Positions 18,701 through 43,631 of a stretch of 64,000 nt of DNA are shown here, in pieces (position 1 is the first letter of the stretch; each line of letters begins with the position of its first letter). Under the pieces are notes generated by a model. That model did no database searches and had not been told where the DNA came from. It saw only the letters and a list, made by a program, of their open reading frames with translations. A program made the translations under genes and the position numbers. Origin of the DNA: Flavobacterium sp. (GTDB lineage: Bacteria > Bacteroidota > Bacteroidia > Flavobacteriales > Flavobacteriaceae); NCBI RefSeq assembly GCF_046155325.1, contig NZ_JBJXDQ010000003.1:4804-68803 (forward strand), read 5' to 3'.

Positions 18701-19657
18701 ATGAAAACTACTATTACTTTTTCCGCAAAAACAGCACTTTATTCCTATATTGGTGTATTAAGTATTTTAATTTCATCTTGTAGCTCATACCAAAACAGTT
18801 CCTATTATGATACTGACGGTATTTATGGAAATACCGAGGTTAGAAACATCGAAAAAAGAACTACTGAAAATGTAACCCAAAATACTTCGAATAATAAATA
18901 CAAAGAATATTTCAATTCTTTGCAAAACGAAAATTTATCTAGTGGATTATTTAACGATGTACAAAATGATAATATTATTAATTCAAACAATGCTGATGCA
19001 AATCGTGAATACAACAACCCTAATACCACTATTATTTACGTAAATGATAACGGATGGAACAACTGGAATTCTGGTTGGGGAATGAACAACTGGTATGGCG
19101 GTTGGGGATGGAACAACGGATGGGGAATGAATAACTGGTACGGCGGTTGGGGATGGAATAATTGGAACAATGGATGGGGAGGAAATTTTGGTTGGGGATG
19201 GAACAACGGTTGGGGATGTAATAATTGGGGAAACCAATATTACTCCAACAATCAATATTCTTATGCAGTTGGCAGACGTGGATCTGCAAATACTAATGTT
19301 AGAAATGTAAACAGAAGCAATTCCCAAAACAACACTGTAAATAACAGATCAAATTATACCATTTCGAGTAGAAACGCTTCTAATAATGATTTAAACAGAA
19401 CCGTTATAAGAAGAACCGAATCACAAATTCAAAATAATTCCACTTCGACGAATCGTACTAGAACCAATTCAGACACCAATACTACTCGTTCCGAAAGCAC
19501 TACTCCTACTAGATCCTACACGCCTAGTTCCAATAATTCATCAAACAATTCGAGAAGTTCGAGTTCGTTTGACAGCGGTAGCCGATCATCTAACAGTGGT
19601 GGTGGATCTTTTGGCGGCGGAGGAGGAAGATCATCTGGTAGCGGAGGAAGAAGATAA
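18701..19657 (+). CDS. Putative lipoprotein with W/G/N and S/G/R low-complexity regions
   Basis: Lipobox-like ISSC; GWGWNN repeats; GGGRSSGSGGRR tail. Confidence 0.75.
   Translation: MKTTITFSAKTALYSYIGVLSILISSCSSYQNSSYYDTDGIYGNTEVRNIEKRTTENVTQNTSNNKYKEYFNSLQNENLSSGLFNDVQNDNIINSNNADANREYNNPNTTIIYVNDNGWNNWNSGWGMNNWYGGWGWNNGWGMNNWYGGWGWNNWNNGWGGNFGWGWNNGWGCNNWGNQYYSNNQYSYAVGRRGSANTNVRNVNRSNSQNNTVNNRSNYTISSRNASNNDLNRTVIRRTESQIQNNSTSTNRTRTNSDTNTTRSESTTPTRSYTPSSNNSSNNSRSSSSFDSGSRSSNSGGGSFGGGGGRSSGSGGRR
19076..19165 (+). repeat. 45-nt tandem coding repeat (WGMNNWYGGWGWNN x2)
   Basis: Units start at 19076 and 19121; the four differences in the first 14 codons are all synonymous. Confidence 0.9.
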
Positions 19658-24298: not shown

Positions 24299-24375
24299 TT
24301 TGTCATTCTGAGCGCAGTAAGAATCACATAACGATAGCAACAGATGTGATTCTTCACTGCGCTCAGAATGACAAA
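24299..24375. repeat. Long REP-like inverted repeat (TGTCA-type)
   Basis: 31-bp stem (24299-24329 with 24344-24375, one bulged C at 24355), 14-nt loop. Confidence 0.9.
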
Positions 24376-41393: not shown

Positions 41394-43631
41394 CTACAAA
41401 ACCAATAAACCAAAATCTCTCAAAGTATTGACCGGTTTTGAATACCAAAACAATTCGAAATCATTAAAATGAATTTCAAAATCAGATTTTACTTCCTGAA
41501 ATGAATAGATTTTTGAATTTGAAACCGATATTTTCTGGAGTATTTGAACCAACCATTCTCCCTCATTTTTCGCTGTTTGAATGGTAAAGCTTTCCTTTTT
41601 GTCGTGAAAAGTCAAAGTCATCATTTCCCAACTGTTTCCTTTTTTGGACTTTGTAAAATATTCTAAAGTTGGCATTCCTCCTAGCCAAACTATTTTGGCT
41701 GTCGGTTTAATATTAAAATCTAAATCTTTAAGCAAGGCTTCAGAGATAAAATCAGGATGAATTTTGGTTTTTGGAATCTTAAAATCGAACCATTCTTGCA
41801 ATTCGTAGTCAAAACAAATTCCGTGCATAAAATTGAATAAGGATTTTTTTAAACCATAACTAAATTGATTATGATCTATTCCTGTTTCATCAACGAAGTT
41901 TATATCGTTATTAGCAAAAGTCCCAACAACTTCGGTTTCTTTCACCACGCCAAATTTCTCTGGATACATTCCCACAGGACTGTGTGCTGTCATCGCAAAT
42001 TGATGCCAGAAACCCGATTGCAAAACCCCAACTTCAAACAATTGTCGCACCATTTCGAGGCTATCTACAGTTTCCTGAACCGTTTGCGTGGGATAACCAT
42101 ACATCAAATAAGCATGAACCATGATGTTGGCTTCGGTAAAATTGCGAGTCACTTTAGCCACTTGTTCGACCGTTACGCCTTTGTCTATCAATTGTAATAA
42201 TCGGTCTGAGGCTACTTCGAGTCCTCCCGAAACGGCAATACATCCGGAAGCTTTGAGCAATAAACATAAATCTCTAGTAAAACTTTTTTCGAAACGAATG
42301 TTCGTCCACCACGTAACTGATAATTTCCTGCGCAGAATTTCTAGTGCCAACGCTTTCATTAAGGCTGGAGGTGCTGCTTCATCTACAAAATGAAAACCAT
42401 TTTCACCCGTTTGCGCTATCATCTCTTCCATTCGATCACACAAAATATTGGCGGCGATGGGCTCGTAAACCTTAATATAATCTAACGAAATATCGCAAAA
42501 AGTACATTTTCCCCAATAGCAACCGTGTGCCATCGTGAGTTTGTTCCATCGACCATCGCTCCACATTCGGTGCATGGGATTGACTATCTCAATAACCGAA
42601 ATGTATTTGTCTAATAGCAAATCTGAATAATCGGGTGTGCCAACTTGAGATTGTTTGTAATCGGATTTTAATGAATTGTTTTTATAAACTACTTTGCCGT
42701 TTTCAAGAAGGAAAGTTCTTTTAAATTGCCCTTCGACAAGCTCAGGGTGACAAACTGCATTTACGAGTAACTCCACTGGTAATTCGCCGTCATCTAAAGT
42801 AATGAAATCGAAAAACTCAAATACACGAGTGTCTGAAAGCGAACGCAATTCGGTATTAGGAAAACCACCACCCATGGCAATTTTGATATTTGGGTGGTGT
42901 TTCTTTACCCATTGAGCCGAACGAAAAGCCGCATATAAATTCCCCGGGAAAGGTACTGAAATCAGGAATAATTTGGGTTGAATGGTTTCGATTTTTTCTT
43001 TTAGAATCGATATTAAAATTACATCAATATAAGTTGGTTCTTGTTGCAGAGCTTCATACAATTCGTCGAATGAATTAGCAGAGCGACCCAATCGTTCTGC
43101 GTAGCGACTGAAACCAAAATTAGCATCGACACATTCTACAATAAAATCGGAAATGTCTTCGAGGTATAAAGTCGCTAGATGTTTGGCTTTGTCTTGCGTT
43201 CCCATCGTTCCGAAAGCCCAATCCAATTCCTCCAATTGTGCAAAACGAGAAGCTTCAGGCAAATAATCTTCCTGACAAATTTGTAATGCCAATGTTGGGT
43301 TTTTCCCCTGAAGAAATGCAATAACACTATCTATGGTTTTAATGTATTCGTCTTGGAGAGCGAGAATTCTTTGGGTGTTTATTGTTAAAATGGAACGCAT
43401 CTCGACTGCGCTCGAGGTGACACCTTCATTGTTACAAAACAAATTTTCAAGTCCTTCTTTAGAAAATAATTTCAAAATCACTTCAATGCCTAAATCAGCT
43501 TGAGTTGTCTGAATGTTTTTGGTATTCAGAAACCCTTTGATATAAGCGGTTGCTGGATACGGTGTATTCAGTTGAGTAAAGGGTGGTGTGATGAGGAATA
43601 CTTTGCTTTTCAAAGGAATTGTTTTGTGCAA
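41394..43631 (-). CDS. B12-binding domain radical SAM protein
   Basis: ITPPFTQLNTPYPA; HGCYWGKCTFC; alternative TTG start at 43613. Confidence 0.9.
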   Translation of the reverse strand: MHKTIPLKSKVFLITPPFTQLNTPYPATAYIKGFLNTKNIQTTQADLGIEVILKLFSKEGLENLFCNNEGVTSSAVEMRSILTINTQRILALQDEYIKTIDSVIAFLQGKNPTLALQICQEDYLPEASRFAQLEELDWAFGTMGTQDKAKHLATLYLEDISDFIVECVDANFGFSRYAERLGRSANSFDELYEALQQEPTYIDVILISILKEKIETIQPKLFLISVPFPGNLYAAFRSAQWVKKHHPNIKIAMGGGFPNTELRSLSDTRVFEFFDFITLDDGELPVELLVNAVCHPELVEGQFKRTFLLENGKVVYKNNSLKSDYKQSQVGTPDYSDLLLDKYISVIEIVNPMHRMWSDGRWNKLTMAHGCYWGKCTFCDISLDYIKVYEPIAANILCDRMEEMIAQTGENGFHFVDEAAPPALMKALALEILRRKLSVTWWTNIRFEKSFTRDLCLLLKASGCIAVSGGLEVASDRLLQLIDKGVTVEQVAKVTRNFTEANIMVHAYLMYGYPTQTVQETVDSLEMVRQLFEVGVLQSGFWHQFAMTAHSPVGMYPEKFGVVKETEVVGTFANNDINFVDETGIDHNQFSYGLKKSLFNFMHGICFDYELQEWFDFKIPKTKIHPDFISEALLKDLDFNIKPTAKIVWLGGMPTLEYFTKSKKGNSWEMMTLTFHDKKESFTIQTAKNEGEWLVQILQKISVSNSKIYSFQEVKSDFEIHFNDFELFWYSKPVNTLRDFGLLVL
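42729..42752 (-). repeat. TGTCA-type REP-like unit in frame inside the radical SAM gene
   Basis: tgtcaccctgagcttgtcgaaggg encodes CHPELVEG. Confidence 0.75.
43398..43422 (-). repeat. Second TGTCA-type REP-like unit in frame inside the radical SAM gene
   Basis: tgtcacctcgagcgcagtcgagatg encodes VTSSAVEM; internal ctcga/tcgag stem. Confidence 0.75.

Follow-up and report, generated by a model that had tools for sequence, protein, structure and literature searches.

The radical S-adenosylmethionine (SAM) gene considered here, which lies at positions 41394..43631 on the minus strand of a 64,000-nucleotide stretch of Flavobacterium sp. DNA (contig NZ_JBJXDQ010000003.1, positions 4,804 to 68,803; hereafter the window), contains a 24-nt segment translated as VTSSAVEM. 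A preliminary description, made from the letters of the sequence, had taken this segment for the second of two independent insertions into the gene of elements resembling repetitive extragenic palindromic (REP) sequences. The question raised by the locus is therefore whether the segment is an ordinary piece of an enzyme or a translated DNA repeat and, if a repeat, where such a repeat comes from. We find the observation confirmed and its interpretation supported. The segment, which we call unit 2, is almost certainly a member of a dispersed repeat family lodged in a permissive linker, and for the locus as a whole we consider it likely that in unit 2 the gene carries a short tagged hairpin DNA repeat and not an ordinary piece of the enzyme. 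The host is a 745-residue B12-binding-type radical SAM protein, recognised from its open reading frame (ORF) and from a PF04055 Radical_SAM domain at residues 368-527 (Pfam profile search). It has weak similarity to B12-binding radical SAM methyltransferases, and its gene is conserved across Flavobacterium (about 35/36 genomes sampled) and present in a few further families of the order.

Unit 2 occupies 43398..43421 on the minus strand, with a T before it at 43422, and has the form GTCA-CCTC-GAGCGCAGTCGA-GATG. The plus strand of 43398-43422 reads catctcgactgcgctcgaggtgaca and the minus strand tgtcacctcgagcgcagtcgagatg, as had been claimed. Its codons, GTC ACC TCG AGC GCA GTC GAG ATG, specify residues 71-78, which fall within a hypervariable linker between two predicted helices (site 1, FCNNEG[VTSSAVEM]RSILTINTQR, residues 65-88; 43367..43439, minus strand). 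Unit 1 is a 23-nt variant at 42729..42751, also on the minus strand, with the form GTCA-CCCT-GAGCTTGTCGA-AGGG and a perfect 4-bp stem; the sequence given for 42728-42751 is tGTCACCCTGAGCTTGTCGAAGGGc. Its reading is shifted by one base (tGT CAC CCT GAG CTT GTC GAA GGG), so that its peptide is (C)HPELVEG, that is CHPELVEG at residues 294-301, inside site 2 (residues 286-302). The two units share an orientation, differ in frame and stand 670 nt apart, close to the distance of ~650 nt first given. They also differ in apex (CTTG vs GCGCAG) and in length (23 vs 24 nt), in keeping with the independence claimed for them. The stem requires a correction. The 5-bp inverted repeat ctcga/tcgag on which the preliminary description relied is present in unit 2, but it can form in no copies other than those with arms ending in TC; what the family conserves is instead pairing of the 4 bp flanking the 12-nt core. 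In unit 2 these arms, CCTC and GATG, retain 3 of 4 pairs, whereas intact family copies have CCTC/GAGG.

The genome analysed comprises 2.75 Mb in 202 contigs (32.8% G+C; assembly 95.6% complete). The exact 12-nt core GAGCGCAGTCGA occurs in it 14 times against an expectation of 0.036, each time preceded by GTCA and four bases (the tag being GTCT or GTCG in two copies) and with TGTC(A) before the stem in 12 of the 14. In 10 of these copies the four bases 5′ of the core exactly complement the four bases 3′ of it. A search for GTCA, any four bases, the core and the perfect complement of those four bases gave 13 matches, compared with 0 in three shuffled genomes. With one mismatch allowed the family has ~25 copies, including the GAGCTTGTCGA variant of unit 1. 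Its architecture consists of a 5′ tag, (T)GTCA, a 4-bp complementary stem of varying sequence and a conserved apex of 11-12 nt, either GAGCGNAGTCGA or GAGCYTGTCGA. Copies occur singly and as inverted doublets with outward tags (C62:30308-30363 and C131:6785-6840), which bears out the description of unit 2 as REP-like, and the doublets fold very strongly as single-stranded DNA (ssDNA; z = -12). It could be argued that the segment is a chance palindrome in an ordinary fast-evolving loop, given that the loop is hypervariable and that a 5-bp palindrome alone is weak evidence. That explanation is refuted by the excess of exact cores, by 22-nt matches elsewhere in the genome with three mismatches or fewer, and by the occurrence of the same unit at the same site in other species and in other frames. 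A small ribozyme was also considered; compared by eye with the hammerhead and other cores the apex did not fit, and arms ending in TC disrupt the apparent CUGA. One further copy of the unit-1 variant, GTCACCCTGAGCTTGTCGAAGGG, lies at C88:17879-17902 (L049), ~100 nt from a signal recognition particle RNA gene (Bacteroidales_small_SRP, 93.8 bits). On contig C156 three copies (at 2843, 4788 and 11587) are embedded in a longer repeated segment of at least 70 nt, tgcttGTCATCTCGAGCGCAGTCGAGAGAagcaaatccgtttcatctgcgtactttctcacaaca, which suggests a larger composite repeat.

What homologs carry at the two sites was examined in the 120 closest database homologs (86-100% identity) and in 30 orthologous loci. 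Most close homologs lack unit 2, among them proteins 86-90% identical to the host. In the 120 proteins residues 65-89 and 286-302 are the only internal stretches that combine high entropy with length variation, site 1 alone showing 82 variants and site 2 showing 74, and in the 30 orthologous loci both sites are indel-rich linkers. The ortholog comparison that had been proposed as a check thus excludes a constant length or a conserved sequence, and the notion of variable loops that repeatedly accept such elements holds good. At site 1 we distinguish at least three separate repeat insertions. Two of them are seen in the 120 homologs as VTSSAVE[RM] and [RC]HPERSRRA; the third, CHIERSRD, is found in genome G022, where tGTCACATCGAGCGAAGTCGAGAT belongs to the same repeat class, is read in another frame and has G022's own apex, GAA. 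Site 2 contains repeat-derived peptides in several frames (VCHPELVEG, VTSSAVEK, VCHTERSRG and VCQTEPVEV) and, beside them, unrelated elements such as SPPLEGWPKDGV and PDPSEGGE. An insertion at site 1 can be read directly from one filled/empty pair, in which P0070 has caaccaac-GTCACCCTGAGCGCAGTCGAAGGG-cgaaaacc and P0084 has caaccaac-aac-cgataact, revealing a clean 24-nt unit. On an ortholog tree built with the two sites left out, the state changes twice at site 1 and at least five times at site 2, and the sister of the window gene (L009, Shimodaira-Hasegawa-like approximate likelihood ratio test support 95) has no repeat at either. Sites 1 and 2 act as sinks for mobile repeats.

Not everything in these linkers is a GTCA hairpin; in other species unrelated palindromes and heptamer microsatellites are found at site 1 and site 2 alike. 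Two species have an unrelated palindrome, ggCCCCCTaaCCCCCaaAGGGGGa, at site 1, and in L017 and L018 a CCCCC palindrome, CCCCCTaaCCCCCaaAGGGGG, is read there as SPLAPKGG. Heptamer runs are also translated in frame at site 1, GTTTCAA as FKFQVSSFKF and AACACCC as NTQHPTPNTQ; loci with such non-hairpin fillings, heptamers or palindrome, are L010-L015 and L028, L002, and L017 and L018. At site 2 of P0070, P0084, P0092 and others the repeat-like peptides VLNSPPLEGWPKDGVA and SSPDPSEGGE look like further translated palindrome families.

The VTSSAVE insertion of the window is common to ~9 of the 120 homologs, in identical frame and position; judged from this alignment, unit 2 was not acquired at site 1 by the present genome alone. 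In one of the sharers, P0010 (locus L050), the stem is intact (GAGG). Directly 5′ of the shared VTSSAVER unit, the same locus has tGTCACGGTGAGCGt, which resembles the 5′ half of a second unit and whose counterpart in the window, tgtaacaatgaaggt, is decayed; this half-unit suggests nested or partly duplicated repeats.

The sharing of one insertion among homologs also lends itself to an explanation by allele replacement. Here the linker would have been exchanged between Flavobacterium lineages by homologous recombination, bringing in unit 2 as part of a foreign or ancestral allele, and the sites would be hotspots through lack of constraint and not through targeting by an element. The homologs that share VTSSAVE carry three different site-2 alleles, a sign either of recombination between sites 1 and 2 or of site-2 turnover. 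Moreover, discrete linker alleles (for example QSNNQQPITDNCK and QVSSFKFQV..ISDNS) are incongruent with the tree of the rest of the protein, and the linker of the window differs throughout from the nearest empty allele, that of P0007 (66 vs 45 nt), so that the proximate origin of unit 2 may be allele replacement. Such exchange nevertheless leaves unexplained how a repeat first entered any allele. Real independent insertions are required by the clean filled/empty pair and by copies with genome-own apex variants in different frames (L022 vs the window). We consider allele replacement a possibility of rather low probability, and one that complements the insertion of a mobile repeat without being a substitute for it.

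The family extends well beyond this genome. Of 61 related genomes, 32 contain the pattern GTCAN4GAGCN2-3GTCGA; copy numbers range over 0-85, a control search with the pattern reversed gave almost no matches, and within Flavobacterium the apex variant (GCA, GAA, GGA, TT or CT) is genome-specific. In a scan of one genome per species across bacteria, yielding at least 120 loci, the tag and apex were identical across at least 15 phyla, GTCA being invariant in this set by construction; the base before it is mostly T or C. The groups with the motif include Bacteroidota, Verrucomicrobiota, Bacillota (Christensenellales), Acidobacteriota, Planctomycetota, Ignavibacteriota, Zixibacteria, Thermomicrobiota, Saccharimonadota, Peregrinibacteria, Kiritimatiellota, Rhodothermota, Dormibacterota, Fidelibacterota and Alphaproteobacteria. 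Among the cross-phylum matches listed, 121 of 160 copies have perfect 4/4 arms, where chance would give 1 in 256. Across 140 distinct copies 84.7% of stem positions are paired, against 57.8% in shuffles (0/500 shuffles as high) and 27-49% in slid controls, and each of the four pairs has changed on both sides in 42-70 of the 140. The stem of the family thus evolves by compensating change, and a fifth pair that uses the A of the tag can form in 78 of the 140 copies.

In the present genome 8 of 25 copies lie inside long ORFs, in frame within housekeeping genes, and 17 outside, a share that is depleted relative to coding density, yet much above that of typical REPs. The hosts of the eight were checked by Pfam and PDB. 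The radical SAM gene and an NAD-binding protein have two copies each, and the others are in glutamyl-tRNA synthetase (residues 372-380, where the closest solved homolog, 6brl, is five residues shorter), a BioD-like AAA_26 protein, a D-2-hydroxyacid dehydrogenase and a cytidylyltransferase, so that in-frame copies are found in the radical SAM gene and five other host genes. Four of these copies are sense and four antisense, five frames are used and the peptides are unrelated. The 24-nt unit with TC arms is open in 5/6 frames, and therefore insertion that preserves the frame and adds no stop is the rule and not a coincidence. Selection would then keep a copy inside a gene only if the frame is kept, no stop is introduced and the loop is tolerant.

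These observations also bear on whether selection retains the segment for what it does itself, be it as an mRNA structure (pausing, stability, regulation) or as a loop peptide. Conservation of tag and apex across phyla does imply selection on a DNA or RNA motif somewhere, and unit 2 is on the sense strand and so is transcribed. Against this, the intragenic copies stand in both orientations, in five frames and with unrelated peptides, the stem of unit 2 is decaying and most orthologs lack the unit. Furthermore, a single unit folds weakly, no Rfam family was found for the repeat at E <= 10 (host gene and six single or doublet loci searched), and the characterised Ssn nuclease showed no RNA binding (Chenal et al., Nat Commun 2025, PMC11893778). 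We regard an own function of the segment as very improbable.

If the repeats are mobile, which enzyme moves them? A 5′ tetranucleotide tag, a hairpin and inverted doublets are the architecture of a REP/REPIN, which would be mobilised by a Y1/HUH transposase of the RAYT type. Y1_Tnp genes occur in 33 of 61 relatives, their number correlates with that of the repeats, and this genome retains a broken fragment, its only Y1_Tnp match (C152:9-230, L031), which lies at a contig end, contains an internal TAA and is either a pseudogene or an assembly break. This explanation is largely refuted, however, by the surroundings of the Y1 genes. At 12 sampled Y1 loci (40 kb) we found 0 GTCA hairpins, the repeats beside the genes being of another kind, tagged GTAG/CTAC, and there is no Y1 gene among the 120 cross-phylum motif loci listed. 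Moreover, G022, G027 and G028 lack Y1 genes altogether despite their 10-19 repeats, and G034 combines 8 Y1 genes with 1 repeat. The GTCA family thus has neither the flanking Y1 gene nor the GTAG tag of these systems, and that a RAYT mobilised it is highly unlikely. Judged from its repeats, the genus seems to have a separate classical REP-RAYT system: the Flavobacterium Y1 genes (~155 aa) are bracketed by 35-59-nt inverted repeats in which a CTAC/GTAG tag stands by a small hairpin, such as TTCTACCAATATTAAATCCCTAACGGGATT (loci L034, L035, L037 and L039 in G014, G012, G006 and G025, respectively).

A different kind of gene does accompany the GTCA hairpins. Clustering of ORFs at the 120 cross-phylum loci listed identified GIY-YIG nucleases as the sole recurrent small family, with a GTCA hairpin 0-160 nt upstream of the gene in 5/5 such loci. 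Around 29 GIY-YIG loci of the relatives the hairpin density is 0.77/kb vs 0.011/kb in the genome background. These small (~100 aa) proteins have PF01541 as their only domain and are of two clearly distinct types. The hairpins on either side of type A (YYVYILTNK...LYIGVTNNL) have the form GTCA-TTYC-GA(C/G)NNAGGA-GRAA. Type B (MKFYYVYILKCSD...) is accompanied by the class of the window (GAGCGNAGTCGA or GAGCTTGTCGA) at 8/9 loci and is bracketed on both sides in 6, with tags outward. Explicit REP> gene <REP cassettes, in the manner of an insertion sequence ending in hairpins, are found in these Flavobacterium relatives at L200, L201, L202, L204, L205 and L206; in L200 the repeats at 1453-1475 and 1793-1815 enclose a gene at 1498-1791. 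The L200 cassette stands between murG-like and murC-like genes, where the spacer is 580 nt in G042 and ~50 nt in the present genome. In G042 and G004 GIY-YIG genes are flanked by the apex variant of unit 1. Against the UPF0213 structures 1zg2 and 1ywl, type B scores E = 7e-14 and 6e-11, respectively, and type A E = 0.1-0.2 only. Moreover, 12 of 24 genomes that hold four repeats or more have a type-B gene, vs 3 of 37 with fewer repeats (P = 4.6e-4). From this arrangement we somewhat favour the view that GIY-YIG nucleases are the cognate partners of the repeats; that they actually mobilise them is possible but less likely.

This assembly (95.6% complete) contains no type-B gene and no repeat-gene-repeat layout. 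Its one strong GIY-YIG homolog, on C87, is of type A and has a doublet of a related variant upstream. Within the window an intergenic inverted doublet at 24302-24373 (ttGTCATTCTGAGCGCAGTAAGAATCA ... TGATTCTTCACTGCGCTCAGAATGACaa) is nearly identical to the C87 doublet, spacer included, and by that likeness looks like a gene-less miniature copy of the C87 gene's repeat. Two weaker GIY-YIG homologs (C78:~19226-19438 and C44:~2629-2826) lie directly downstream of tRNA genes, with open frames that extend through the tRNA sequence. In two relatives a type-A gene (G025:C1:106930-107223 and G006:C2:381974-382282) is found 0.9 kb and 3.8 kb, respectively, downstream of the orthologous radical SAM gene.

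Besides the difference from the P0007 allele over the whole linker, several results weigh against the reading of unit 2 as a copy of a tagged hairpin repeat partnered by such nucleases. Single units fold weakly by canonical nearest-neighbour rules (z = -1.0 and +0.2). An AlphaFold2 model of the host protein, made from an alignment with 34 close homologs, leaves residues 68-80 unstructured, but its low confidence (mean predicted local distance difference test score 48) makes it too poor to place sites 1 and 2 on the surface. The motif published for the hairpins of Ssn nucleases, HGTCWYN(0-2)YYVSBRHN(0-5)WNVSBRGN(0-2)RNCYNB, matches the Neisseria controls when searched as a regular expression, yet it has 0 sites in the window or in the whole genome and misses both units. 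On the side of the nuclease, the link to the repeats consists of adjacency and co-occurrence, and 12 of the 24 repeat-rich relatives, this genome included, have no type-B gene; the repeats may persist after the gene is lost, or they may depend on a different enzyme (possibly a type-A GIY-YIG) or on none. Type-A genes indeed adjoin hairpins of the window's class in L071, L154 and L207. Finally, repeat counts track Y1 counts equally well (rho 0.65 vs 0.62 for GIY-YIG); these correlations do not discriminate, probably because of genome size, and we therefore rely on adjacency.

With these reservations, we propose that the repeats derive from a GIY-YIG cassette, as the hairpins that its nuclease recognises and as miniature versions of it that lack the gene. 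By analogy with the NTS/SRM-Ssn system of Neisseria described below, the nuclease of the cassette would bind the single-stranded hairpin and cleave on the 5′ side of the tag, a few nucleotides away, and copies could spread by a nuclease-dependent step together with homologous recombination between alleles. Given the mismatch in its stem and the lack of a cognate type-B gene in the assembly, unit 2 itself is most likely an immobile relic, probably inert, that adds eight residues to a tolerant linker. More tentatively, GTCA-N4-GAGCGNAGTCGA-N4' hairpins and UPF0213/YhbQ-like GIY-YIG genes might together form a distinct, ancient, insertion-sequence-like element of many phyla, whose gene-less copies create a recurrent linker-length polymorphism across Bacteroidota; this broader proposal we hold to be possible but not probable.

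For annotation, these data mean that VTSSAVE, HPERSRR, HPELVEG and STALDV in Flavobacterium proteins are translated hairpin repeats and not features of the enzymes, and that such peptides mark linkers tolerant of insertion. The enzyme also offers a natural experiment on how selfish DNA shapes protein loops, since mobile repeats and microsatellites have filled two of its linkers again and again. The hairpin is also a concrete candidate substrate for UPF0213/YhbQ-like GIY-YIG proteins, a family of unknown function, and may offer new specificities for ssDNA-cutting enzymes. If the proposed pairing is true, a second nuclease clade besides Ssn (cd10448) would work through tagged ssDNA hairpins, and UPF0213/YhbQ would gain a function as a site-specific ssDNA nuclease or mobilising enzyme. 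The scope of Ssn/SRM-like systems is touched as well: tagged hairpins of this kind occur in Bacteroidota and in no fewer than 14 further phyla, as a variant to which the published motif is blind.

How, then, does the family compare with known systems? REP/REPIN-RAYT systems, reportedly described by Nunvar in 2010, Bertels and Rainey in 2011 and Ton-Hoang in 2012, share with it the tagged hairpin, the inverted doublets, the genome-specific variants and an associated nuclease gene, present once, that has its own repeats on both sides. In the present family, however, the partner gene is GIY-YIG and not HUH/Y1, and the tag is GTCA and not GTAG.

Among the closest known systems are the CGTC-tagged REPs, described together with GTAG-tagged REPs by Di Nocera et al. 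(BMC Genomics 2013, PMC3733652). They have an unpaired CGTC tag, often TGTC and also CCTC, beside a short stem-loop, form sub-families with compensating stems, lack a dedicated transposase and include in-frame intragenic copies, sometimes two per gene, among them the Rickettsia palindromic elements (RPE) RPE-4 and RPE-6 (PMC3733652; for RPEs, Ogata et al. 2000, as cited there). Like these and dRS3, the GTCA family has a TGTC tag, compensating sub-families and head-to-head dimers and lacks a dedicated Y1 transposase; like RPEs, it is found in frame inside functional genes, sometimes twice in one gene, although we found no sequence relationship of the GTCA repeat to RPE-1. The published definition of the CGTC family further specifies an 8-9-bp stem starting with A/T, a 4-5-nt loop and a CCA tail (PMC3733652). 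Here the CGTC/TGTC tag is present, but a CCA tail is lacking, the apex measures 11-12 nt and the stem no more than 4 or, at most, 5 bp. No Flavobacterium is included in the species catalogue and supplements of that study (PMC3733652), and the repeated colonisation of one protein linker across a genus is not described in its catalogue.

The other close system is that of the Ssn nuclease of Neisseria. There SsnA, a GIY-YIG nuclease of 94 aa, recognises the dRS3/NTS repeat (CGTCATTCCCGCG..); it binds the hairpin solely in single-stranded form and cleaves upstream, a few nucleotides 5′ of the tag (Chenal et al., PMC11893778). The ssn genes are bracketed by their own repeats in the manner of an insertion sequence, and there are thousands of Ssn homologs, each with its own "SRM" repeat (PMC11893778). 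Bacteroidota are not mentioned in that paper (PMC11893778), and our literature searches returned no paper linking GIY-YIG genes to Bacteroidota repeats or repeats to UPF0213/YhbQ. The likenesses are an oriented (C/T)GTCA tag with a hairpin (NTS CGTCATTCCCGCGMAVGCGGGAATC vs TGTCA-N4-GAGCGNAGTCGA-N4' here), tens to hundreds of dispersed copies, inverted pairs, a wide phylogenetic spread and, as in NTS-ssnA-NTS, GIY-YIG genes of ~95-110 aa bracketed by their own variant, with an apparent co-variation of repeat and nuclease. In contrast to the long GC-rich palindrome of NTS, a stem of 4-5 bp here supports a large conserved apex. Roughly a third of the copies are intragenic, ~15-fold more than the 2% reported for NTS in N. 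meningitidis (PMC11893778), and the genes bracketed in Flavobacterium are UPF0213/YhbQ-like and known here as predicted genes, in contrast to the characterised Ssn enzymes. In-frame REPs and nuclease-associated tagged hairpins are thus already known. What is new in comparison is the family itself, together with its conservation across phyla, the UPF0213-like GIY-YIG genes with which it is paired and its repeated colonisation of the linkers of one enzyme.

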